Source: Eledone cirrhosa (taxonomy: Eukaryota). Taken from it: a stretch of DNA of 64,000 nucleotides. Below the pieces are notes generated by a model, which had not been told where the DNA came from, made no database searches, and was given only the letters and a program-made list of their open reading frames with translations. Location: NCBI GenBank assembly GCA_964016885.1, contig OZ024740.1:167338001-167402000 (forward strand), read 5' to 3'. The position numbers were made by a program, and so were the translations under genes. Below are positions 2,298 through 58,690 of this stretch, piece by piece (the stretch's first letter is position 1; the number at the start of each line of letters is the position of its first letter).

Positions 2298-5200
2298 GTG
2301 CGACCAACAACAACCACACCACCAAACATTTTATCCACCAAAAACACCAACAACGCAAACAAAACAAAACACTCACACCAAACAGCAACAAGAAGAAAAC
2401 AGCAACAAAATCACCCCTACCCCAAAAAGTACACAGCCATAAACATGGCAAATGAAGAACTCATACAATATATAAAGCAGCACACAGACATCACAGAAAA
2501 AAACTACTACACCCCACCAACACCAAGAACTCTCTCGACAAACACAAGCATCATTGATATCAAAATAGAACAGTACAAACTTTTAAAACAAAAATTCCCC
2601 AACGCAGTTGGAGACTTCGGAGGGTCGGTTACCAAGAGGATATACACTAACATCCTCTTAGAAACACACATGACCAGCCAAGGGGATGGTTTTACTGTCT
2701 CTTCACCACACGATCAAGGTAAGTGACCCTTTCTCACTTGCCCCGTTTCTCATCCAACATGGCCGTGCTCAGAATAGGCAGTATAAAGGCACGTGGCCTG
2801 GGGTCATCTTGGAAGCAGGGTCACCTGCTCAACGACCTCAGGTCACTAAACATAGATGTGGTGGCCATCAGCGAGACCAGAATCTCCGAAGCACGAGTCT
2901 TCGCACCGATCTTCGGCGGCTACGATGTATACCAGCCGTCCAGGATCGGGGGGAGAGGTTGCCGTCCTTTTTCGGAGATGCTTCTATCTCGCCATACAGG
3001 CCATCTTCCTAGACCCAGAAGGTAAGTCGGTGGTGCTGGCCGTGACTGACAGCGAATGCAATTCTTTTAGGCTAGTAGCCGTCTACACCACAACTGGGGC
3101 AGGACGGCCCAGATTTCTTCAGACGTCTAGAGACTTTTCTATGAACGTCCCGCTCTTTAGTGTTAGTGGGCGACTGGAACGGTATCTTGGATGCGCGTTG
3201 GAATTGTGTGGGGCTAGTAGATAGAGGAGGAGGCTGCAAGAGCCTCACCAACCTGCTCAGACGTTTTTAACTGTCTGAAAGGTATCGACTGGGTCACTCT
3301 AATGTGCCAATGTGGACATGGACAAACCGCATCGGGTCATCCAAATAGTATCTCGATAGGGTATTCTTCAGAGAACAAGATAAGGTTAGTATAAGTTGTC
3401 CACAATTTAAAATAGTCGACTAAATAGACCACACATTTGTGATCTGTGAGATCGACATAGACAGACTTCATAAACAAGTGCCCGGTTACTGGAAGCTGAA
3501 CGCGTCTTTCCTGGCGCGCAAAGCCTACAGAGACCGGATTAGTGTATTAGTTAAGCCGGTTTAGCAAAGGACTAGTGATAGAGGAAAATAGAGTAGAAGG
3601 AGGGCTAGTCAGAAAGATAGAAGAGGCGTTTAGCACAGGCATTGCAACCGACGTGCTTGTGGTGAGATTGGCACTCGACCAATTTTTCAACGCAAGACAC
3701 GAAGGCTGCGTTGTCAGAGCTAGAGCGCGTGCTCTGAAACACGAGGGGACAAAAGCTGTCCAATGGGCCCGGGTGGCAGAGGCGCGACGTGGCAACAAGT
3801 CCACAATTCGGTTTTTGTCTGACTAAAACGGGTGCGTGTTGCTCGAACCCGATCAGATGTGTGAAGCTTTTCAGCAGCCTTGTGCTGAACTGTTCGGGAG
3901 CAGCGGCTGGCCGGATCGGGGTATGGACACAGTGTTGCCAAAAGCCAATAACAGCCGGTGAAATACGGGAAGCGATAGCGCTGCTGAGAAAAGACAAGAA
4001 CAATGGGGATGTTATCGATAATTTCAGGCCCTTAACTCTGCTAAACGCAGAGTTCAAGGTTTTGGCCAAGGTGTTAGCAACGAGGTTGGCGCTTGTCGTC
4101 AAGGGTCTGGTGGGAGTGGCGCAGACATTCGCCATTCCGGACAGATCCATACAGGACAAACTCCACCTCATGCGATACATCACAGAGAGGGTGGTTAAGG
4201 AACCTGGCACGGGTGGGGCCCTGATCAACTTGGATCAATACAAAGCATTCGATAGGGTCGACCATCGGTACCTGGCGGCGGTCCTCAAGGTAGCCGGTTT
4301 CGGGCCCGTTTTCAGGGGTTGGATCGCTGCGATGTACAGCGACATCTGCTCAGTTGTGAGGGCGAAATGTCGCAGCCGTTCAGCATGATGCTCTCGGTCC
4401 ACAAGGGTTGCCCCCTCTCGTCCCTCTTGTACGTATTGGCTCTCGAGCCATTACTGCACAAACTGGGAGCGATGAGGGGCGTCCCACGCGAACTAGGATA
4501 CGGGAAATCCGAATCGGCTTACGCCGATGACCTCACCGTGGTGTGGTCGAGCACCAGACACGTCCAGATGCTCGGCACCGCTCTCAAGGAGTACGAAGCG
4601 GTGACACGAGCAAAGATAAACCAAGAAAAGTCGGTAGACTTCCAGCTCGGCACCTGGAGTGGCAAGTCCATACCGTCCGACAGCGTCGTGGGGTGTTGGA
4701 CGGACGGACCGGTTAAATTGCTCGGGGTCTGGTTCGGACCGGACCTCCAGATGGAAGAAACCGAAGCGAGGTGACGAGCAAGGTGGCCTCCCTCACCCAG
4801 AAATGGGCCGAGAGGAAGCTGTCCCTGAAAGGCCGGGCGGAGGTGGCGAGCGTACATCGCATCCGTCATCTGCTACCGCCTTACCGTCTTCCCTTGCCCC
4901 GGCCCAACTCCCACCAAAATGGAGCGACTCCTCTCCCGCTTTTTGTGGAAGGGACGCGCTCCCATGGTCAGACGATCAATCTGCTGTCAACACCCGTTGT
5001 GTGTAGGACTGGGCATGCCATAGCTGATGATGCGCAAACATGCACTAAGGCTGCGAGATCTCTGATGCTTCCTTGACGGTGAACAGGTGTGATCGCCGTT
5101 CACCAGGAACGTTTTCCCACAGCTCTTCTCCTTGACGGAGCTGCAGTCCTGGGTCAGCAAAAGACCGAGGGATAGCGCTTGGAAACAGGAATGTCTCCAT

Positions 5201-5928
5201 GCGCTCACTGCCCTCTGCCAGCTGGGCACCAGTATCGGTGGAACATCCACCTCGGAGTTCTATAGAGGACTAGTGGAGGGGAAGAGCGACGACGTTCTCG
5301 GAGAGATCCTGGGCGTCGAAGAAGATCAGCTGTTTGCTCTCTTCCGGAGTACTTTCAGCCCAGGGCCTATGGATAATTTCCAAAAATCCCTGGCCTGGCA
5401 GTGCTACCGGGGAGCGTTGCCGGTTCGAGATAAGCTCTACAGGCAAGGAAGTGCCGTCAGCCGAGCCTGTCCAAGATGCGCGCAGAGCGACGCAACCGTC
5501 GTGCACGCACTCTTTCAGTGCCCGAGCATTGCTGACCTGTGGAGCTATGTCGAACTGTTGCTGTCGCGTGTAGGGCTGATCGGGTTATCGACTGAGTCCA
5601 TTGTGCAGATGGTCTCGACGTCTTCCTTCGAGGAGGAAGCGCAGGCGGTTTTCATTTGCCTGGTGGCCATGGCGAAAGAGATTGTGTGGCAGACAAGGTT
5701 GAAAGGGTTAAAGACAGACACTTTCCTTTTCGGCGAATTCCTAATTAATTTTCATTTTTATTGTTTATATATATATATATATGTTTCTATGTCTTTTTAT
5801 TTTCTTCTTTTCTTATATAAATAATAAAAATCTTTACACGCACAAAACCCACATCGTACCGTCCTGTACCGTCCTGTGCCGTCTGTAATGTTTTTCCTGA
5901 CGTCAGCCCTTGTGGGCAATAAAGAAAT
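2298..5928 (+). mobile_element. Degraded, internally deleted L1/Tx1-clade LINE copy (ORF1 3' end, APE, RT, 3' UTR)
   Basis: Colinear and highly similar to 8270-12370. Fragments include LRIGSIKARGLG, FRPLTLLNAEFKVLAK, YADD and CPRCAQSDATVVHALFQC, with many stops/frameshifts. Ends in cccttgtgggcaataaagaaat. Confidence 0.92.
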
Positions 5929-6574: not shown

Positions 6575-8667
6575 ATGGCTACGAAAAAGAATTTGCATAG
6601 GTCACTCCCACTCATTCCGTCTTCTTCTTCCTCAATCGTCACTACAGCAGAGAGAAGATTGTCTCTCTCCCTCCCTTCTTTAAATGTGTCTCTCTCTCTC
6701 CCTTCTCTTTCGCAAGCGACGAAAGAAAAGAAAAGTCTCGTGCAAAGCGTGCAAGGTTTTTCCACGACGACGACGACAGCGACGAAACAGGTGTGCGGGA
6801 AATACGAAAACCCAGTTCATTCGTCTGACGTCAGGAATAATAGCAGTAGCAGCCGTAATAACAACAGCAACAGTGACAATGAAAACAACAGTAGCAGCCG
6901 CAACAGTATCACCAGCAGCATAAACAACAACAGCATTAGCAGCAGCAACAACAACCACAGCAACAGCGGCGAAGGCAGTAGTCGTAGTACCTGCAGCAAC
7001 AACAAAAGTAACAGCAGCTCTGACGACAACAACAACAACAGCAGCATAGAAAAACCAATCTCATTTGCAGGTATTGCGAAAAACCTGGAAACAATCCTCA
7101 TAACAAATGAGGAATTAGAGGAAGCGAAGAAGATGGTGACAAAGAATGGACACCGAGCAATCTGCAAGGCAGCGAAAAATTTTTTCGAAACCCAAGAGCA
7201 CTGTACGGTCACGTACCGTACAGTAAGTACAAAATCCCGTAGGGTGGAAAGAGCCACAGAGGCCCAAATACAAAAAGCCTTGGGGTCTGTGTGGCAGCGG
7301 AAAACGCACATCACCCGAGGCAAAAAATATGCCACCGTAGACGTACTTTTTGCCACACCCCAGGAGGCAAAGGCCCAATCCGTAGTGACCCTAAGGAGCG
7401 AGGAAATGGTGTTGGTGCCCCCTACTGCGGGCAAAAAATTGTGAGGGTCAAACTGACCCACGTCCCCCCCGGAATGGCCCCTTCTTGGCTGGCCGCGTCT
7501 GTCCTCGTCGGAATCGAGGATAAAACAACTGTACTGCAAGTACAGAAAAAAGTAAGAGAAGATTGGGTCGGCACCTACATTGAGATGCTAATCCAAACCA
7601 ACCAGGAGTGCATCGAAGCTATCCCGGATGTGATAGACTTCGATAACGGCACTCAACTGCCCATTAGTGTTGAGGGCAAACGCCCGAAATGCTTTCGCTG
7701 TGGATCGAAGACTCACCTCAGGGCCTTCTGCAACGAGAAAACCCTGAGAAAGGAGAAAACCCCCCTATTTCCGAATCCGGCTCCACGGCTACCAGCAACA
7801 GGACAAGCGGCAACCAGGAACGATAGGTCCGTGGCACCCATACCCACGCCACGGAAATCAAAAACAGCAGCAGCAGTGGAAATACTAACAACAACAACAG
7901 CAATACCAAATGCAGCTGCAACAGAGACTCCAGTGCAAACATCACCAACAACAACAAGTGAAAGAGTGGAGCTGGTACCCCTCCCCGACCTCACAGAATC
8001 AGACATGGACTCTGAGGTGGGAGAGGGATGGCAAAAGGTCGTAAGAAGGCACAAACGCAGAAGCAGCGCATCGTCGCCTTTGAAAAGGGAGGAAAGAAAT
8101 GAGAAAAGGGTAAAGTCTACTGCAAAGAGACCCACAGCAGCAACACCACCAACACCATCACCACCCACACTAGCACCACCATTACCACCGGCGACAACCC
8201 CACCGCCAACAACACCTTCAACACCACCACCACAAGCACCAACATCGCAAACACAACAACAAAACACACACACCCAGCAACAACGACAAGAAAATAGCAG
8301 AACCCCCCCCCCCCACAAAAACAAATGCACGGCAATAAATACACACAACAAGAAACTAATGACTTACATAATTGAACACACAGACATTTCACAACAGGAC
8401 TACATAATACCAGCACCAATCAAAACGCCAACTAACATAAGACTGCTAAAAATAGCACAGAAACAATACACAAACATTAAAACGAAATTCCCCAACGCAG
8501 TTGGTGATTTCAGGGACCTAGGAGGAACCATCAATCGAAGAGTATTTTCAGACATTCTCTTAGAAGAGCCGACGACCAGCCGAAGGGACGATTCAACGGT
8601 CCCTTCACCAGACGATCAAGTGAAAAGGGATGTAAAAACCATCCCTCCTCTACCAAAAGTACGGTAA
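6575..8667 (+). pseudogene. Tx1 ORF1 (gag-like nucleic-acid-binding protein), split by one frameshift near 7418-7440
   Basis: ORFs 6575..7444 and 7291..8667 overlap. CX2CX4HX4C knuckle CFRCGSKTHLRAFC, N-terminal Asn/Ser tract, and Pro/Thr-rich C-terminal region. Confidence 0.85.
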
Positions 8668-8702
8668 GTGGTCTTTCCCATCTTTTCCACTCTATTTTAA
8701 AC

Positions 8703-11700
8703 ATGACCTCACTCAGAATAGGCAGCATAAATGCGCGTGGCTTGGGGTCGTCATGGAAGCAGGGTCACCTGCTCAACGACCTCAGGTCACTAAACATAGA
8801 TGTAGTGGCCATCAGCGAGACCAGAATCTCCGAAGCACGGGCCTTCGCACCGATCTTCGGCGGCTACGATGTGTACGCATCTCCCAGCCGTCCTGGATCG
8901 GGTGGAGGAGTTGCTGTGCTTTTTCGGAGAGGTTTGGATCTCGCCATACGGGCCATCTTCCTGGACCCAGAGGGTAAGCTGGTGGTGCTGGACGTGACCA
9001 GCGGAGACGGGCAAGCTTTCAGGCTAGTGGCCGTCTATGCCCCGACAGGAGCAGGGCGGCCTGATTTCTTCCGGCGTCTGGAGACCTTTCTTGGAACGTC
9101 CCGCTCTTTAGTGTTAGTGGGCGACTGGAACGGGATCTTAGATGCACGCTGGGACTGTGTGGGATTAGCGGATAGGGGTGGAGGGTGCAAGAGCCTCACC
9201 AACCTGCTCAGGCGTTTTGAACTGTCTGACAGGTACCGATTGGATTTCCCGAATGTGCCAATGTGGACTTGGACAAATCGCATAGGGTCATCCAGATCAT
9301 ATCTAGATAGAGTATTTTGTAGGAAAATAGATAGGTCTAGCATAGGCTGTCCACAATTCAAGATAGTCAGCTACACGGACCACAAATTCGTGATATGTGT
9401 GCTTGATTTAGATAGGTTTCATAGACGAGGACCCGGCTACTGGAAGCTAAACGCGTCCTTACCAGCGCGCAAGGCCTACAGAGACCGGATTAGCGAACTA
9501 GTTAAGCGGGCGTTGATGGGGGCCATCGTCAACAACAAGTGGTGGTTTGCTCTGAAAAGAGCGATTAGAATAGAATCGATTAGGTTTAGTAAGGCTTTAG
9601 CAATAGAGAAAAATAGAGCAGAGGGAGAACTAGTTAGAAAATTAGACGAGGCGCTTAGCAAAGTCATTGCGACCGACGTGCTTGCGGCGAAATTGGCCCT
9701 TGACCAATTCTTCAATGCAAAGCACGAAGGCTGCGTTGTCAGAGCAAGGGTGCGTGCTCTCAGACACGAGGGGACGAAAGCCGTTCAATGGGCCCGAGTG
9801 GCGGAGGCGCGTCGTGGCAACAAAGCCACGATCCGGTCTTTGGTGGACCACGACGGGCGCATGCTACTCGATCCCGGGCAAATGTGTGAAGCTTTTCAGC
9901 GACACTTCGCTCAGCTGTTCGGGGGCAGCGGTGGGCCGGGTAGAGGGATGGACTTTAGTGTCTACCTCGACGGACTGCCGCGGCTCTCGGCCACTGAGGC
10001 GAAGTGTTGCGAAAAGCCGATAACAGCCGCTGAAGTAAGGGAGGCAATGACTGGCTGCACAAGGGGTAAATCGCCTGGTTTGGATGGTCTGCCCTATGAA
10101 CTTTACGTACAGATGCCAGACTTGTTCGGAGGCCTCTTGGCGGACGTCTACTGCAACTGGCAACAGAACGGGAGAATTCCCAGTTCTGTGAGCCGAGCAG
10201 CGGTGGCACTGCTGAGAAAGGATCCGAACAAGGGGGATAACATAGATAATTTCCGGCCCATAACTCTGATAAACACAGAGTTCAAGATTTTGGCCAAGGT
10301 GCTAGCAAAGAGGTTGGCGCTTGTCGTTGGTGGTCTGGCGGGAGAGGCGCAGACATGCGCCATTCCCGACAGATCCATCCACGACAACCTCCACCTCATG
10401 CGATACATCATAGAGAGGGTAGCTAAGGAACCTGGCACGGGTGGGTCCTTGATCAATTTAGATCAGTCGAAAGCTTTCGATAGGGTCGACCATCGTTACC
10501 TAGCGGCAGTCTGGAGGGCGGCTGGTTTTGGGCCCGTCTTCAGAGGCTGGATCGCTGCCATGCACAGCGACATCTGCTCTGTGGTGAGAGTGAACGGTCA
10601 CCTGTCGGAACCGTTCAACATCATGCGCTCGGTCCGCCAAGGATGTCCCCTCTCGTCCCTCTTGTACGTATTGACTCTCGAGCCATTACTGCACAAACTG
10701 GAGACGTTGAGGGGAGTCCCGCGCGAACTAGGATGCGGAAGATCCGTGTCAGCATATGCGGACGATGTCACCGTAGTGGTGTCGAACGCCAAACACATCG
10801 AGGCGATCGGCACTACACTAAGAGAATACGAAGCGGTGACAGGAGCAATGATCAACCAGGAAAAGTCAGTGGGCCTGCAGCTCGGCACCTGGAGAGGCAG
10901 GTCCATGCCGTCCAACAGCGTTGTCGGACGCTGGACGGACGGACCGGTTAAATTGCTAGGGGTCTGGTTCGGTCCGGACCTCCAGACGGACAAAAACTGG
11001 GACGAGGTGACGAGCAGGGTGGCTTCTCTCACCCAGAAATGGGCGGAGAGGAAGCTATCCCTGAAAGGTCGAGCGGAGGTGGCTAATGCGTACATCGCGT
11101 CTGTCATCTGCTACCGCCTGACCGTCGTACCTTGTCCTAAGCCTCGCCTGACTGCGCTGGAGCGTTTGCGCTTTCGTTTTTTGTGGAAGGGACGCGCTCC
11201 GGTGGTCAGGCGGTCCATCTGTTGTCAACACCCGCTACGTGGAGGGCTGGGTATGCCGTGGCTGATGATGCGCAGGCACGCGCTCAGGCTACGACATCAC
11301 CACCTCTTCCTCGACGGTGATCAGGTGTGGTCGCCGTTTGCTAGACACGTATTTCCCCAGCTCGTTTCCTTGACGGAGCTGCAGTCCTGGGTCAAGCGAA
11401 GACCGAGAGGGAGCGCCTGGAGACTGGAATGTCTTCAGGCGCTCACAGCCCTCGACCAATCGGGCAATGTGATCGGTCGAAACTCCACCTCGGCGTTCTA
11501 TAGAGGATTAGTGGAGGGGAAGAGCGACGACGTACTTGGGGAAACTCTAGGCGTCGACGAAAATCAACTAGCCAATCTCTTCGGAAGAACTTTCGGGCCA
11601 GGGCCTATGGACAACTTCCAGAAATCTCTGGTCTGGCAGTGCTACCGAGGAGCCTTGCCAGTTTGGGATAAACTCTACAGGCATGGAGGTGCCGTCAGCC

Positions 11701-12121
11701 GGGCATGTCCGAGATGCGCGCAGGGCGACGAAACCGTCCTGCACGCACTCGTCCAGTGTCCGAAAATTGCTGACTTGTGGGTTTATGTCGAACACCTGCT
11801 GTCGCGTTTAGGACGGATCCGGCTATCACTGAGTCCATCGTGAGGATTGCCCCGCCCTCCTCCTTTAGCGGGGAAGGGCAGGCAGTTTTTATCTGCCTGG
11901 TGGCCATGGCGAAAGAGATAGTATGGTGGACACGTTTGAAAGGGCTGAAGACGAGCACTTACCTCTTCGGTGATGCTCTGATTGACTTTTTTAAATTTCA
12001 TTTGAAAAGGAAAATCAGAGTAGAGAGGGAAGTGCTCTCTTCCCAGCATTTTGTTGAAAGATGGGTGAGAGAAGCAAGAATGGCCCGAGTGAATGGGCCT
12101 ACTCTGAGTATATATCTGTAA
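8703..12121 (+). pseudogene. Tx1 ORF2 (APE endonuclease - reverse transcriptase - CCHC finger), one frameshift near 11828
   Basis: 1046-aa ORF with SINARGL/ISETR/GDWN/YLDR/TDH APE motifs, QGCPLS and YADD RT motifs, and CPRC-X8-H-X4-C. Continues in ORF 11777..12121. The paralog at 5581-5600 (ttatcgactgag) shows one base missing here (ctatcactgag). Confidence 0.93.
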
Positions 12122-15826: not shown

Positions 15827-19890
<4,064 letters not shown>

Positions 19891-19981
19891 CTTTTTTGTT
19901 CCAGAACCTAAATTGCCAATTATCTCTTTTATATTGTTCTGGAACATCATTGAATTGGAAAAAAAAAAAAAAAAAAAAAAA

Positions 19982-20041: not shown

Positions 20042-23000
20042 TGATCAGATCAAGCTATTAGCACAAAGTCAGCGAAGGGAAAATTAAACATGTGTCAGTG
20101 AAAACGAGGTAAACTGTAACACTTCGAATCCCAGGGTTGGGGCGGAATCACTGGCAACAGAACAAATTAAAGAAAGGATCGAAAAAGTGGAGGGAGTGCA
20201 TGCTCAGAATGAAACTCCAAATGAAAATAATGAGATCGTAAATGATAAAGAAATGAATGAGAATGAACTTGCCAACTTGAAGGATGAAATTATGATCGAA
20301 TGGATGAAAATGAAAGAATCTGACATGGGGCAACGAGACACCCTCCCTAAGATCCAGAACTCCAAACAGAACCAAAAGATAATACACAAGACTAACATAA
20401 TTCTCAAAAACATTATCATCACAAACAAACTAAACATTACTGATTTAAATCATCTCTATTATGCATCGGCTAAAGTCACCACTCACTTATGTGGAGTGAA
20501 GATGAAAAAACAAAGGAATTCCCACAAGAAATCTACTTGGCAAGAGAACATCAATCGCCAAATAAACCTTCTCCGATCTGACATAGAAATTTTAACAAAC
20601 TATAAAGTAGGTGAACATGTTAAACAAACTAAACTTAGAAAATTGAAAAAAGAATACAGTATAAAATCAACATGTGACATAGACATGCTGATAGAAATAA
20701 TCAAGCAAAAAGTGTCGGCCAAAGCTGCTCGTATAAGGCGCTTTGAAAAACGATATAGATTCTATAAGGACAAATTCTATATGTTCAAAACAACCAAAGA
20801 AACTTCTACAGAAAAATTGGTAAGTCAACAATAACTGCTAAATCAATACCACCCAAAGAGGAAGTGCAAGAATTCTGGGAAAAGATCTGGGCCGAAGAAA
20901 AAGTTCATAACATACATGCCCCATGGATAGACAGACAAATGAAAGATACAGCTCACCTTGAGGAACAAACATGGGAAAATATAACAGTTGAACAGTTGCG
21001 CTTGGCTCTAAGAAAAACCAGCAAATGGAAATCCCCAGGAAAAGACAAAATACAAAACTTTTGGATAAATGCCTTCACAGAGTCTCATGAGCTGTTAGCC
21101 CAACTTTACAATGAAATAGTTAAGGAGCCAGAAAAGATACCTTCATGGCTAGTTAACGGCATTACATTCCTGCTTCCGAAGAATGATGAGACAAACAATC
21201 CCAAAAATTACAGACCGATAACTTGCTTGACCACAATGTATAAAATTTTAACATCAGTCCTAACTGAATACACTTATAACTACCTGATAACAAATGACCA
21301 ATTTCCCATTGAGCAGAAAGGGTGTAAACCAGGCTCATATGGCTGTAAGGATCAGCTTCTGGTTAACAAAATGATACTGGAAGATTGTCATAATAGACAC
21401 AAAAATCTATCGATTGCTTGGATAGATTATAAAAAAGCATTCGATAGTTTGCCACACAGTTGGATTGAAAAATGTTTAGAGATTTTCAAAATATCCCCCG
21501 TTGTCAGGAGGTTTTTTTCATTCAGTATGAAGACATGGAAAACGACACTCCTTTTGAATAGTGAAACAAAATCACTGGAAGCTGGAGAAGTTAATATTAA
21601 TTGTGGAATTTTTCAGGGTGACTCTTTATCACCGCTTTTATTCTGCATCGTACTTATACCATTAAGTAAAATTCTCAATGAAACAAAACATGGATATAAA
21701 GTCTATGACAAAACCATTAATCACCTGTTCTACATGGATGACCTGAAACTATTTGCAAAAAATGATGAACAATTGCAAGGGCTATTATCCACTGTGAAGC
21801 AGTTCAGTGATGACGTTAACATGGAGTTTGGACTAGATAAATGCGCCAAAGCAACGTTCACCAGAGGAAATCTGCTGAAGAGTTCAGACATTAATCTTGA
21901 TCGGGGGAACGTGATAAGAGAACTTGATCAAGAAAAAACTTACAAATATCTAGGTGTTTGTGAAGGAGACGGAATCAAAAACTCGACAATGAGGGAAAGG
22001 ATAAGGAAGGAATGTTACCGCAGAGTAAGAGCAATCTTAAGAACGGAATTGAATGCAAGGAATAGGATCGATGCCATAAACACGCTTGCCATACCAGTAG
22101 TAACCTACAGTTACAATGTCATCAACTGGTCAAGCACAGAGATCCGTAGGATCGAAAATTCTTAACTATGTACAGAATGCATCACCCTAAGGCAGATATA
22201 GATAGAATATATCTCCCTAGGAAAGAAGGAGGACGTGGGTTAATCCAGTTAGACATTGCGTTGAAAACTGCAACAATTGGATTATCTACATATCTAAGGG
22301 AATCACATGATTGGATGATCAAACTCGTTTTGAAACACGAAAGCATCAAAAGATCATATTCCATTACAAAAGATGCACAAAGATACAGTAATGGACTACA
22401 AATTTCAGAAGTCCCATTTACTGCTGAAATGGAAAACACAGAAAAACAAAGCAGGTAAAAGTAACTGCAAAGAAAGAACTGCTACAGAAACTGGCTAAGA
22501 AATGGCAAGAAAAGCCTCTGTATGGAAAATACCCAGAGCGAGCTAACAATCCTGATGTTGACAAAACTTTAACCCATCAGTGGTTGGCATCCTCTGGACT
22601 GAAATCGGAGACTGAAGGACTGATTATATCGGCAACAAAAAATTACCAAGCCAACATAATAAAAAATGGGTGCAGCCCATTATGCCGAGTATGCAAAAAA
22701 CAACCAGAGACCATTGACCATATAATTTCAATGTGCAGTCCTATAGCTCCAACCGAATACCTAAACAGGCATGACAGAGCTGCACAATACATACATTGGA
22801 TAATGTGTAAGCATTTTGACCTGCCCCAACAAAAGAATTGGTGGGAGCATCAACCACCTCCCATACTTGAAAAAGATCACATCTCAATCTTGTGGAACTT
22901 TAGCATCCAAACAGACCGAAAAATAGATGCAAACAGACCTGATATAATATTGAAAGACTTTCAAAAGAGGGTATGCCTGCTAATTGATATGTCTGTTCCA

Positions 23001-26975: not shown

Positions 26976-27372
26976 ATGTCTTTAGATAAAAATAACAGGT
27001 CCATTCATATATATATATATATATATATATGAATGGACCTGTTATTTTTATCTAAAGACATTTTCTCATTCTTTCTGCTGATGAAGGACTAGGGTTCGAA
27101 ACGTTAAGTCCCTCTTCTTGCTATTTCAATCGTTGACCTAATATAATCCTTCCATATATGGTGTACCGATCGTGTTGTTATTTCTATTTACCTTTTACAT
27201 ATATATATGTTTGGTGGCTACAAACAAATTCCAAAATACGGGCGCGAATTTTAATGTACTTGTTCACGTGACAGTCATAATTTCATTTATAACCGTTTTT
27301 TTTTGATTCTGTAAAAAAATCTAACTTTCTAATATAAATATATGGTGCGTTATGGTCCAGCTGGTTCCTTAC

Positions 27373-28110: not shown

Positions 28111-28459
28111 ATATTTAATGAGACCCAAACACGATTTGAAATCGGTCTGGCACGACAGTTTTCCTATCTATGAAGAGAAGAAAGAACTTACTAAAACTTG
28201 TTTGTTGAAAAAAGAAGTGACATAGTCACTACTTTAAAATAAAAGAGTAATGTCTTTAAAATGTTTTTAATTAAGCATACAGTATATTGCCAAATATACT
28301 ATATATACTTCATATATATATATATATATTAGAAGTGAGGGTTTTTTTTACAAAATGAAAAGTAACCGAGGTGTCCTACACGAATGAAAGTATGAGGAAA
28401 AAAGATGAAATCGAAAATGCAACTGGGCGAAACCGGAACCAAATAAATATACTCTTTTA

Positions 28460-28880
28460 TCTTTTACCTGTTCCAGCCATCCGGCTGAGGCCATGCTGGG
28501 GCAGCGCCCTTGTTGCTACACATTTTATCTCCAGCTCGTATTGGTTGGCCACTGGTGTAAGAGGGAGTTTGTTTCTGCTGCCCTTAGGATTCCCTCGTGT
28601 CTTGCTGTGGGCTCATCCGGGATCCTGGATAGCAAGGTGTCGAGATGTTTCTTGAAGACATCCACCTTCACACCATGCAAATCTCCCTCGGCAGCTTGTT
28701 AAAGAGTTGAGGGCCCTTCAATGCCAAACTATTGTAATATCTGCTCCTTATTCTAGATGTGGAAGACGGGACCTTTGGCACCACACAGTGACGTCCTGTT
28801 CGACGCTTGGTCCAGCTCCCAATGCCAGAGTTTGGTGCTCGTCTCTCCAGGACTTTCCACATGTAGCTCAATGCGTACAT
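28460..28880 (-). mobile_element. 3' fragment of a CR1/L2-group LINE
   Basis: ORF 28668..28880(-) YMWKVLE...GRHCVVPKV...NSLALKGPQLFNKLPREI resembles CR1-group ORF2 C-termini and is followed by a short 3' UTR. Confidence 0.6.
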
Positions 28881-28924
28881 TTAAAAAAAAAGACTCCAGT
28901 TGCATTTTCGATTTCATCTTTTTT

Positions 28925-28979
<55 letters not shown>

Positions 28980-29146
28980 ATAATATGTTGAGAAGGTAAC
29001 ACACCAGAGAGAGATATATAGTGCGTTATCAATAATACAGGGAAAAAACCACCAGTGTATGGAATCTATAACCTATGAAAGGCAGACTATAGACACGATA
29101 ATTAAAAATATAAATTAAAGCGTAAATAAATACCTCTATAACTATA

Positions 29147-29229
29147 TTACACACGTACAAATCCAGAGATATGTTTCGCCAGAGAAATTGTTGAAAGAAA
29201 TGTTAGTCTCGGTTCATCAGCGTGTGTAA
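29147..29229 (-). ncRNA. Type I hammerhead ribozyme (inverted copy)
   Basis: Exact reverse complement of 29792-29874. Confidence 0.75.
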
Positions 29230-29791
29230 GGCTATACATCTCAGACAACACTAAGAGAATTTTACAATTGACTGTCCAGGCACACGTGGGAGAGAGAAGT
29301 CACAGCGTGTTTAAGGGCAGTGAACCAGTGGCCTCTGAGAGACGAACTGCTAGAAAGGGCAGCCCAAAGCCACTCAGAGAAGGGTGCTCAACCAAACAGA
29401 TAGGAAAGGCTGTTGTTAGGAGCGAAATATCACGATGAATTCCCTGTATTATTGATAACGCACTATATATCTCTCTCTGGTGTGTTACCTTCTCAACATA
29501 TTATATTCTAAAGGGCTCAGGATCTCTTCCCCTTTGAGCACATTATTTACAGGGAATAACGACGGCCTATGCCTCCGTTAATTTATCGTGATATTTCGCT
29601 CCTAACAACAGCCTTTCCTATCTGTTTGGTTGAGCACCCTTCTCTGAGTGGCTTTGGGCTGCCCTTTCTAGCAGTTCGTCTCTCAGAGGCCACTGGTTCA
29701 CTGCCCTTAAACACGCTGTGACTTCTCTCTCCCACGTGTGCCTGGACAGTCAATTGTAAAATTCTCTTAGTGTTGTCTGAGATGTATAGCC

Positions 29792-29874
29792 TTACACACG
29801 CTGATGAACCGAGACTAACATTTCTTTCAACAATTTCTCTGGCGAAACATATCTCTGGATTTGTACGTGTGTAA
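29792..29874 (+). ncRNA. Type I hammerhead ribozyme
   Basis: ttacacacg CTGATGA a ccgaga..tctctgg c GAA acatatc tctg gatttgt A cgtgtgtaa: perfect 9-bp stem I, extended stem II (A-C closing), 7-position stem III with one mismatch, GUA triplet at 29863-29865. Confidence 0.75.
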
Positions 29875-30123
29875 TATAGTTATAGAGGTATTTATTTACG
29901 CTTTAATTTATATTTTTAATTATCGTGTCTATAGTCTGCCTTTCATAGGTTATAGTTTCCGTACACTGGTGGTTTTTTCCCTGTATTATTGATAACGCAC
30001 TATATATCTCTCTCTGGTGTGTTACCTTCTCAACATATTATATTCTAAAGGGCTCAGGATCTCTTCCCCTTTGAGCACATTATTTACAGGGAATAACGAC
30101 GGCCTATGCCTCCGTTAATTTAT

Positions 30124-30177
<54 letters not shown>

Positions 30178-30209
30178 ATATATATATATAATTATTTATA
30201 TATATATAT

Positions 30210-30328
<119 letters not shown>

Positions 30329-34239: not shown

Positions 34240-34345
34240 AGCATGTCGTCGTTGATCGAGTAGCAGAGGTGTAAAAATATACCATTCTGGATAGATCCAT
34301 TGACGACAACATTCACCTTATACGATACATCATAGAGAGAGTGCG
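34240..34345 (+). mobile_element. Short decayed Tx1 RT fragment
   Basis: Matches 10318-10430 (agatccat.gacgacaac.t.cacct.at.cgatacatcatagagag). Confidence 0.75.
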
Positions 34346-34915
34346 TAAGATACCTAAGATACATTATAGAGAGAGAGTGCCTAAGATACCTAAGATACAT
34401 CATAGAGAGAGTGCCTAAGATACCTAAGATACATTATAGAGAGAGTGCCTAAGATACCTAAGATACATTATGGAGAGAGTGCATAAGATACTTAAGATAC
34501 ATCATAGAGAGAGTGCCTAAGATACCTAAGATACATCATAGAGAGAGTGCCTAAGATACCTAAGATACATTATAGAGAGAGTGCCTAAGATACCTATGAT
34601 ACATTATAGAGACAGTGCCTAAGATACCTAAGATACATTATAGAGTAAGTGCCTAAGATACCTAAGATACATCATAGAGAGAGTGCCTAAGATACCTAAG
34701 ATACATCATAGAGAGAGTGCCGAAGATACCTAAGATACATCATAGAGATAGTGCCTAAGATACCTAAGATACATCATAGAGAGAGTGCCTAAGATACCTA
34801 AGATACATTATAGAGAGAGTGCCTAAGATACCTAAGATACATTATAAAGAGAGTGCCTAAGATACCTAAGATACGTTATAGAGAGAGTGCCTAAGATACT
34901 TAAGATACATCATAG
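34324..34915. repeat. ~34-bp minisatellite, ~17 copies (gatacat[c/t]atagagagagtgcctaagatacctaa)
   Basis: Direct reading; period 34 (e.g. 34500 to 34534) with 32-36 bp variants. Confidence 0.95.
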
Positions 34916-35227
34916 AAGACCTGTAATAAATATTCCCATGTTTTCAATCAAAACTTTTTAGTGTGATGACAACTCTACATGTTTCGCTATCTTTCACACA
35001 CACTCCCTCTCTCTCACTGTATTTTTCACTCAAAAACAACAATTACACACTGTTTTTTTTTCTTGAAACAAATTTTAATTCTATCTATCTTTAACACACA
35101 CACGCCATCTCTCTCCACGGCACCTGCCCTTATAGTGAACGTCTTTTTTTAAATCTGTGTTGCGTTGTCTATATATTAAAGAAAATACAGAATTATACAC
35201 ACAAATAACCCCGCCAAACATAGACTG

Positions 35228-56219: not shown

Positions 56220-58690
56220 TTTCTTTATTAGCAACAGGGGCACAAAGAAGGGGACAAATACAAAGGGGGAAGTTTACATACAATAAACACGTGTAAAATA
56301 TTATCACAAATGTAATTTAAAAGTTAATCGATTTTCCCCAATAGGGGGAGACATTTCATATGGATAACACATACCCACGTTAAAAAAGTGCAACCCTCAT
56401 CTCCAGGAGTACGAAGAGTTTGTACCACTTTCCTCTCTTCCTCCTTTTCCTCAACCTACAGGCTGATATAGAGAAAAGGCCCATTCACTCGGGCCATTCT
56501 CGCCACTTTCCCCCACCATTCATAAAACCGGAAAGAAAGGTGTCTGACCTCAGCCCTTTTAACCTCGTCCACCATACAACCTCTTCTGCCATAGCTATCA
56601 CACAAAGGAAAACCGCCTCTCCTTCGTTTTTGAAGGAGGGTGGCGGTTTGATTATGACAATGGACTCGGTGGTCAACTGGATTGGTCCCACCCGCGACAA
56701 TAGTCGTTCTACATAGCCCCACAGGTCAGTAACGTCCGGGCAGTGTACAAATGCGTGCGCGACGGTTTCCTCTTCGCGCACGCATCTCGGACAGATCTTT
56801 TTAGAAGGGTACCTGCCCCGGCGCCCGTGTCTGTAGAGCTTGTCTCGAACTGGTAGAGCTCCTCGATAGCACTGCCAGGACAGGGACTTTTGGAAGTTGT
56901 CCATCGGTCCCAGGCGGAAGGTTCTACCGAACAGACTGGCCAGTTCGTCTTCATCTACGCCCAGAGTTTCTCCGAGCGCGTCGTCGCACTTGCTGCGAAC
57001 CAATCCTCTATAGAATGACGAAGTGAAGTCTCCACTGATCGCCGGGTCCGCTTGAACCAGGACTGCAGCCTGGAAAGCGAGATGAGTTGTGGGAATGCTC
57101 GCCTCACGAACGGGGTCCTCACTGGTTGTCCGGTGAGGAATACGTGGTGGTGCCGCAGCCTGAGCGCTTGTTTGCGCATCGTCAGCCACGGCACCCTAGC
57201 CCTCCGTTTGAAGGGTGTTGGCAGCAGATGGATCTTCTCACCAAAGGAGCCCGCTTCTTCCAAAGGAATTGGAAGAGCGCGCGCTCCATTTTGGTGAGCG
57301 TTTTGGCTGGACAAGGCACGACGGTCAAGCGGTAGTAGATGACGGACGCTATAAAAGTCTTCGCCACCTCCGCTCGACCTTTCAAGGATAGTTTGCATCG
57401 GCCCACTTCTGGGTGATTGCAAACACCTTGGCCGTCACCTCGTTCTAGTTCTTCTCCACCTGGAGGTCGGACCAAACCAGACCCCGAGCAGCTTTACTGG
57501 TCCTTCCGTCCAGCGTCCGACGACGCCATCGGAAGGCATCGGTTTGCCCCTCCACGATCCGAGTTGCAAACCGATGGACTTGTTCCGGTTCAGCTTCGCT
57601 CCTGTGACCTTTAGTATTCCTTCAGTAAGGTGCCGACTTCCTCGAATTGCGACGTGCTCGACACCATAACTGTCATGTCGTCGGCGTAGGCCGACGCCGC
57701 TTTCCGCAGTCCCGGTTCCAGAAGGAAGCCATGCAATAGCTCCAATTTCCGCAGTAGTGGCTCGAGAGTCAGTACGTACAGAAGGAAGGAGAGAGGGCAT
57801 CCCTCTCGAATGGATCGCGTGATATGGGACGGTTCTTGGAGGTAGCCGTTCACCTTGAGCCTTGAGCAGTTGTTGCTGTTGTGCATTGCAGCAACCCAAA
57901 CCCTGAACACGAGTCCGAAGCCTGCCGCCTCGGACACCGCATCCAGGTAACGATGGTCAACCCAATCGAAAGCTTTAGACTGATCCAAGTTGATCAGAGC
58001 CCCACCTAAGCCGGGTTTACATCCTACCCTCTCTATGATGTCTCGCATGAGGTGGAGGTTGTCGTGTATGGACCTGATCGGTATTGCGCATGTCTGCGCT
58101 TCTTCCACCAGGTTTTCGACGACAAGCGCCAGCCTCTTTGCCAACACCTTGGCTAAAATCTGTAACTCTGTGTTTAGCAGAGTTATGGGCCGGAAGTTGC
58201 CTATGTCATCCCCCTTATTCTCGTCCTTCCTGACTAGTGTGACTACGCCCCTGGTCACAGAACTGGGAATTCTCCCGTTATGTTGCCAGTTGCAGTAGAC
58301 CGCTTCCAGGAGACCGGAGAACAAGTCCGGCATTGCTACGTAAAATTCGTAGGGTAGACCGTCGAGACCTGGAGATTTGCGTTTGTCGCATTGGCTCAGC
58401 GCGTTCCCTATCTCAGCGGCTGAAATCGGCTTTGCGCAGAACTTCGCCTCGCTCTCCGAGAGTCGCGGTAGGCCGTCGTGGTATGGACCAAAATTCATAG
58501 CCCCTCCCGGCGCGCCACCCTGCCCGAACAGCTGAGCAAAGTGCTGCTGAAAGGCCGCGCACATCTGCTTCGGCTCACGTATCACGCGTCCGTCTTGGTC
58601 CTTCAAAGACCGAATCGTGGACTTGTTGCCACTATTCGCCTCGTCACCCGGGCCCAGCTAACAGCTTTGGCTCCCTCGTTACCCAGAGCA
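56220..58690 (-). mobile_element. 5'-truncated, frameshifted L1/Tx1-clade LINE of a distinct subfamily
   Basis: ORF 57611..58606(-) has KSPGLDGLPYEFY, FRPITLLN, LDQSKAFD and YADD; ORF 56485..57189 has CPRC..H..C; 3' end cccctgttgctaataaagaaac. Confidence 0.92.

Follow-up and report, generated by a model that had tools for sequence, protein, structure and literature searches.

Architecture of the locus

The window analysed here, a 64,000-nt stretch of the Eledone cirrhosa assembly GCA_964016885.1 (contig OZ024740.1, positions 167,338,001 to 167,402,000 of the forward strand), contains two arms of a 537-nt unit lying back-to-back between (TA)n tracts, i.e., a tandem right arm and an inverted left arm. 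The right arm (29440–30127, + strand) comprises 1.28 tandem units (unit positions 1–537, then 1–151) and ends at a distal fixed site, henceforth called site A (“tail+” end), with ATAT at this end being common to element and target up to 30131. The left arm (28974–29441, − strand) comprises unit positions 141–537, then 1–71, and ends at a proximal fixed site, henceforth called site B (“tail−” end). Both arms are 5′-truncated and meet in a head-to-head junction at 29436–29441 with a 2-nt overlap. The stretch between sites B and A (unit 68–151) forms an 84-nt “tail” at 30044–30127 (+ strand; compare PMC11167929), of which an internal second copy is located at 29507–29590.

In terms of repeats, the locus consists of a direct repeat of 155 nt (29440–29594 and 29977–30131; 100% identity, spacing 537) and an inverted repeat of 468 nt (28974–29441 and 29580–30047; 99% identity, 138-nt spacer). 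The arms differ at 29956, at 29961, and at one junction base; in a comparison of 56 young loci, the changes at 29956 and 29961 were seen in the right arm only. The (TA)n target was delimited at 28928–28975 on the left flank, where the TA repeat tract as called runs 28928–28986 and is shared with an older Neptune-type fragment at its B end, and at 30128–30326 on the right flank (repeat call). Any target-site duplication at the element ends would be indistinguishable within (TA)n. The initial annotation of this locus, i.e., about 1.3 tandem copies of a 537-nt unit plus a near-identical inverted copy of ~467 bp with 2–3 differences, inserted in (TA)n, was borne out in all of these points. It had also proposed a young insertion based on the near-identity of the arms, in agreement with their difference of 0.7%, which is typical of the young subfamily (0.2–0.9%).

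No open reading frame (ORF) of at least 120 aa overlaps the element at 28974–30131, and with the unit taken as circular, frames starting at ATG extend to 50 aa at most; the element is non-coding, and the GC content of the unit is 40.6%, i.e., below 50%. From the arrangement of the inverted arms, a dsRNA hairpin formed by read-through transcription would be geometrically possible.

Family size and subfamilies

The 3.0-Gb genome was searched with the 537-nt unit, yielding 2,683 candidates (40 scored), and with three shorter queries, yielding 1,509, 1,022, and 1,478 candidates; candidate numbers are not copy numbers. The 149 fetched stretches corresponded to 105 loci, and to 103 after dropping the segmental duplicates L059 and L153. 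These loci are the top matches of the four queries and not a random sample. The family comprises at least 103 distinct loci, which fall into two age classes with 68 young loci (94–100% to the present copy) and 35 older ones (79–89%). Arrays within the family reach about 4.4 head-to-tail units. Many haplotypes coexist, and several of them have their own homogeneous multi-unit arrays. Across these 103 loci, the element was confirmed to be what had been annotated, namely a multi-copy, non-autonomous, hammerhead-bearing element of Penelope-type tandem plus inverted structure. The annotated statement that the unit is larger than typical held only in part, as 537 nt is above the 150–450 bp given in PMC7229834 but inside the 51–972 bp given in bioRxiv 10.64898/2026.07.22.740005, as far as these sources were available.

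Two four-unit arrays (L177, 1842–4005, and L019, 423–2578) carry variants shared by alternating units or by the middle pair, a pattern suggestive of post-insertion duplication or conversion in dimer steps. Array homogeneity is therefore no proof of rolling-circle copying.

Hammerhead motif and terminal domain

A type I hammerhead motif was identified in the right arm at 29792–29874 (+ strand), with predicted cleavage after GUA at 29865 (unit 426), and its mirror motif of identical sequence in the left arm at 29147–29229 (− strand). The core consists of CUGAUGA, GAAA, and GUA (29863–29865), and stem I has 9 bp, so that the annotated motif was recovered in each arm. Mismatches in this copy are an A-C at the base of stem II, which is the state in its subfamily and is replaced by A-U in other subfamilies, and a U-U in stem III.

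The assignment as a ribozyme is based on the core motif and on how well it is conserved, because the Rfam search returned no family at gathering thresholds and the 96-nt ribozyme region alone folded no better than shuffles (z −1.13), its minimum free energy fold being one without the hammerhead junction. The whole 537-nt unit did fold better than shuffles (z −3.36). The core was intact in 69 of 79 family loci. Across 24 copies, the proposed helices were paired to 88%, vs 21–57% when slid along the alignment, and covariation in the same copies was not beyond shuffles (37/500). Between subfamilies, the catalytic core and inner stems were identical (0/38 sites vs 44/499 differences elsewhere, p 0.06), and loop II differed at 8 of 30 sites; a stricter test with a wider site set, in which ribozyme-selected loci were left out, resulted in p 0.22. 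These values are only suggestive of purifying selection acting on the ribozyme.

Upstream in the unit, a multi-stem domain was predicted at 29440–29554 (+ strand; unit 1–115), which is closed by an 8-bp stem and contains site B. Judged from the modelled fold, it is a candidate protein-recognition element; no compensatory changes were observed in it (0/32 pairs changed on both sides).

Each strand of the locus carries a single sense hammerhead and thus lacks the two consecutive units by which Li et al. (bioRxiv 10.64898/2026.07.22.740005) define an “active” copy. The locus can therefore not itself yield a 537-nt monomer and is most readily regarded as a dead end. In the family, two hammerheads per arm, i.e., the two-unit arrangement, occur in 15 of 161 arms.

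Fixed outward ends and their pairing

Across the 103 loci, 161 of 168 outward 3′ ends were located at two fixed sites 84 nt apart, with 89 ends at unit 145–155 (site A), 72 at unit 66–71 (site B), and seven elsewhere. The canonical ends abut TA repeats in 155 of 161 cases, and both sites end in short AT alternations matching the target. Circular permutation with variable breakpoints, as expected by the initial annotation, was rejected on the basis of these fixed ends.

Two arms were present at 65 of the 103 loci: 56 of these combine one A end with one B end, one is A+A (L126, nested-looking), one is B+B, and seven have one other end. Considering only two-armed loci with both ends canonical, A+B was found in 56 of 58 (two-sided p 1.2e-14 vs even odds), and it was distributed over 36 young and 20 old loci. 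The fixed ends match the known two-start-site “tail” of Penelope-like elements (PLEs), which was shown in PMC11167929 to be the stretch between two internal start sites of reverse transcription (RT). For the distribution of the tail, a qualitative rule is given in PMC8557442 and PMC3846280, i.e., that it is often found at one end only.

Junctions and arm lengths

At their inner ends, the arms are joined 5′-to-5′ at variable points. An overlap of 1–11 nt was recorded for 41 of 65 junction rows, based on BLAST end points, which may overstate overlap. The 5′ ends cluster near the base of a hairpin at unit 501–20 (59/169), partly as a sampling effect, and show no peak at the predicted cleavage site (427), with 7 of 169 lying within 421–440. 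RT run-off at a cleaved 5′ end was rejected for lack of this peak. Within loci, arm lengths were uncorrelated (rho −0.03), the two arms begin at unrelated positions at the junction, and the B arm often exceeds the A arm in length, covering sequence that the latter lacks.

Relatedness of arms and continuity of the template

In all 15 loci with an arm overlap of at least 300 nt, the partner arm ranked within the closest 7% of all comparisons, and the arms carried the same haplotype. In the 14 young loci among them, partner arms differed by 0.2–0.9%, vs medians of 1.7–2.9% for the other comparisons. Short overlaps do not discriminate between partner and other arms; over such overlaps, arms were 9–11% apart in the old loci L130 and L186. 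The arms of the nested locus L126 were 6% apart. Of 138 locus-private alleles, 15 were present in every covering copy, six in some copies, and 117 in one copy only. The 15 alleles present in every covering copy lie on both arms at nine loci and, at seven loci, recur across the tandem units of a single arm. No strand excess of A-to-G changes, i.e., of editing scars, was detected among private alleles (p 0.21 and 0.24).

The predicted cleavage site is crossed by 101 of 161 arms, and 60 of 161 are longer than one unit. Of 127 crossing segments, 121 were unchanged at unit 424–429 and the other six had substitutions; no indel scar was present in these 127 segments by aligned positions, and one deletion was counted among 122 segments by pattern. 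Three jumps within the same strand, in L006, L122, and L180, pass over the cleavage site.

Given that arms share haplotypes and private alleles and that most of them cross the cleavage site, a single RNA, either uncut or re-closed, likely served as the template. From these sequence comparisons, it would be mostly continuous across the cleavage site, i.e., either a ligated circle or an uncut multimer. The initial annotation had taken the greater-than-unit insert as the footprint of a ~537-nt circular RNA; by itself it is not, because a tandem transcript left uncut leads to an identical product.

Search for the mobilising element

GIY-YIG elements were searched throughout the genome (10,596 candidates, 150 scored), and 81 loci were screened for homology to the unit with blastn and nhmmer. 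In these 81 loci, a small share of the 10,596 candidates, no autonomous element homologous to the unit was found, except that L035 carries an isolated 67-nt piece of the unit beyond a TA tract; weak AT-rich matches at unit 448–493 were judged to be due to chance. Contiguity with an ORF for RT and GIY-YIG was seen at none of the 103 family loci. PLE ORFs are located near L010 and L024, but beyond simple-repeat tracts, and the interpretation of the element as a solo pLTR of an ORF-bearing PLE was rejected on this count.

A Neptune-type family (L086) resembles the element in its ends, as it also has two end sites, 68 nt apart, in (TA)n and downstream of a minimal hammerhead-like motif. Its ORF-bearing, Neptune-type copies L095 and L099 combine A and B on opposite arms in (TA)n with a 68-nt tail, and L203 combines B with a non-canonical end. 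Mobilisation of the family by a PLE is very probable, and the end geometry suggests that a Neptune-type PLE RT/GIY-YIG protein is likely the one acting in trans.

A two-armed fragment of the L086 family neighbours the studied element at 28323–28425 (− strand, 93% identity) and 28883–28931 (+ strand, 90% identity). It has tail+ and tail− ends (A+B), and its right end lies on the same (TA)n as the element. The interior of the fragment (~28460–28880) resembles SINE and LINE 3′-end sequence. A further piece at 27229–27336 resembles the terminal part of L086-family elements (83–84%). Elsewhere in the genome, hammerhead-like motifs were observed near the GIY-YIG elements L201, L205, L211, L218, L228, L232, and L087, some with a long stem II or in inverted pairs, and many without the pair that is usual at the base of stem II.

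LINE-type RT frames in the window are located at 8508–11843 (+), 16466–19907 (−), 20768–22165 (+), 56485–58657 (−), and 3738–5824 (+), one of them, of 1111 aa, combining an AP-endonuclease, an RT, and a zf-RVT domain. These frames were rejected as mobilisers, being AP-endonuclease types at a distance and without link to the element.

Proposed mechanism and alternatives

With good confidence, the family is described as a non-coding hammerhead repeat (non-LTR retrozyme) whose 3′ ends fall at two fixed points within (TA)n, for which a Neptune-type PLE likely supplies the RT/GIY-YIG protein in trans, and whose two cDNAs are both made from one RNA. Dual priming on one RNA is probable as well. In such an event, a PLE protein, probably as a dimer, would bind the RNA near unit 1–151 and nick both strands of the TA tract. 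Each nicked end would then pair with a short AUAU stretch of the same RNA, at site A for one end and at site B for the other, and two cDNAs would be made, truncated at variable points, and joined by microhomology to give head-to-head arms; the template RNA would effectively be longer than one unit. Several of these steps have counterparts in the in vitro work of PMC11167929, in which, in the parts considered here, the PLE protein nicks and extends both strands, uses two internal RNA start sites, and is a predicted dimer. There, start sites were used without strand preference and ribozyme cleavage was not needed, the element PAc inserting without hammerhead cleavage.

On balance, a ribozyme-made, ligated circle transcribed from a multi-unit source locus is the more likely template, and an uncut tandem transcript otherwise. 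The full sequence of events, in which a PLE RT/endonuclease dimer primes both TA-tract strands at once at two sites on one such circular RNA and rolls round it, is put forward tentatively, with somewhat less than even confidence.

A quite possible alternative keeps enzyme and ends the same and takes an uncut linear tandem transcript as the template; no circle would be involved, and arrays would be renewed by unequal crossing-over or by insertion into existing copies. It is favoured by the use of unprocessed RNA by PAc in vitro, where the hammerhead was dispensable for insertion (PMC11167929), by the cleavage of only one of nine Xenopus retrozyme dimers in vitro (bioRxiv 10.64898/2026.07.22.740005), by the local duplication patterns of L019 and L177, and by both tests of ribozyme selection falling short of significance. 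Homogeneous multi-unit arrays specific to each of several haplotypes argue against it, as do the private alleles running through the tandem units of one arm in seven loci and a ribozyme core and inner stems that stayed unchanged between subfamilies though loop II did not.

That the two arms derive from two separate RNAs on an asymmetric dimer, or the long arms from RT jumps across the cut ends of linear monomers, is unlikely. The unlike arms of the two old loci and the three jumps spanning the cleavage site would fit such events, and if a single source locus were dominant, two RNAs made from it would resemble each other; the agreement in haplotype at all 15 loci with long overlaps, in a family in which many haplotypes coexist, the crossing segments with no indel scar in 127 by aligned positions and one deletion in 122 by pattern, and the missing 5′-end peak at 427 speak against them. 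More unlikely still is an inverted arm arising from fold-back or self-priming of one cDNA, from an antisense template (PMC3846280), or from later gene conversion rather than from two independent priming events on one RNA, since, although the arms would likewise be identical, palindromic junctions are read as self-priming in PMC3846280, and 5′ ends do cluster near the hairpin base, arms with unrelated junction positions and uncorrelated lengths are not expected, simple copy-back cannot give a B arm with sequence absent from the A arm, and the exact stop of the second arm at the other fixed site is left unexplained.

Sharp in vitro predictions (one RNA or two, circle or chain) follow from the family, whose unit is a small substrate without coding capacity for which two start sites are mapped, a near-strict rule of one A and one B end applies, and many copies are marked by haplotype. 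Dual priming on a circle, if true, would be the first genomic read-out of the integration of an animal retrozyme circle, and the one-end tail and inverted arm of PLEs would follow strictly from dual priming. Both the transposition cycle of PLEs and the return of retrozyme RNA to DNA are described as open in the consulted portions of PMC8557442, PMC11167929, and bioRxiv 10.64898/2026.07.22.740005.

Relation to known elements

By the sequence features tested, the element belongs with the metazoan non-LTR retrozymes as characterised in the consulted part of PMC7229834 (Cervera, de la Pena 2020), self-cleavage and circular RNA being predictions here. It shares with them a non-coding tandem unit, the type I hammerhead motif, a comparable GC content (40.6%), dispersed copies from monomers to multimers, and PLEs in the same genome. 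Mobilisation of retrozymes by PLEs was proposed both in PMC7229834 and in bioRxiv 10.64898/2026.07.22.740005 (Li, Clavereau, Pollet), the latter making the case for non-LTR retrozymes being non-autonomous derivatives of PLEs. In contrast to the present family, fixed ends, inverted arms, and A/B pairing are not mentioned in the portions of these two accounts considered. Self-cleavage and circular RNAs were demonstrated for published metazoan retrozymes, whereas the present family is known from its sequence.

Insertions of EN+ PLEs (PMC8557442, PMC3846280, PMC11167929; as far as available) resemble the family in having partial tandems, an inverted 5′-truncated arm, a tail at one end, AT-rich or microsatellite targets, and two RT start sites downstream of the hammerhead. 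They differ in that the present family has no ORF and a tail of 84 nt vs 30–40 nt, and AUAU at both of its start sites matches the TA target, in contrast to the start sites of PAc, which are non-homologous. The tail that is reported there as “often only at one end” was counted here as a near-strict rule of one A and one B end. Similarities also exist to the MRC1-type elements of Chlamys, which, according to the section of PMC8557442 considered, derive from PLEs, are non-autonomous, carry pLTRs, and form multicopy insertions arranged head-to-tail; unlike the present family, for which no such relative was found in the 81 GIY-YIG loci, they resemble an autonomous family at the 3′ end.

Neither the counted A+B rule and the arms from the same template nor a statement of the dual-priming-on-circle reading was found in the literature searched, which was mostly outside subscription journals. 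The family is a new member of an element class already known (metazoan non-LTR retrozyme, non-autonomous PLE-like), and the supplements of bioRxiv 10.64898/2026.07.22.740005 may list comparable families.

Further observations

Just downstream of the hammerhead motif, a U-rich, small-intron-like stretch bounded by GT and AG was observed at 29888–29948 (unit 449–509). Many 5′ truncations map to unit 505–513, near this stretch, and no copy with unit 449–509 cleanly excised was seen among the family copies. One arm of L006 carries a later insertion of ~186 nt with an 18-nt duplication (910–1095). Contigs of three sequencing runs carry pieces of the family, none of them spanning the locus at 28974–30131. 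Finally, a minisatellite with a 34-bp period and 17.4 copies is located at 34324–34916 of the window.
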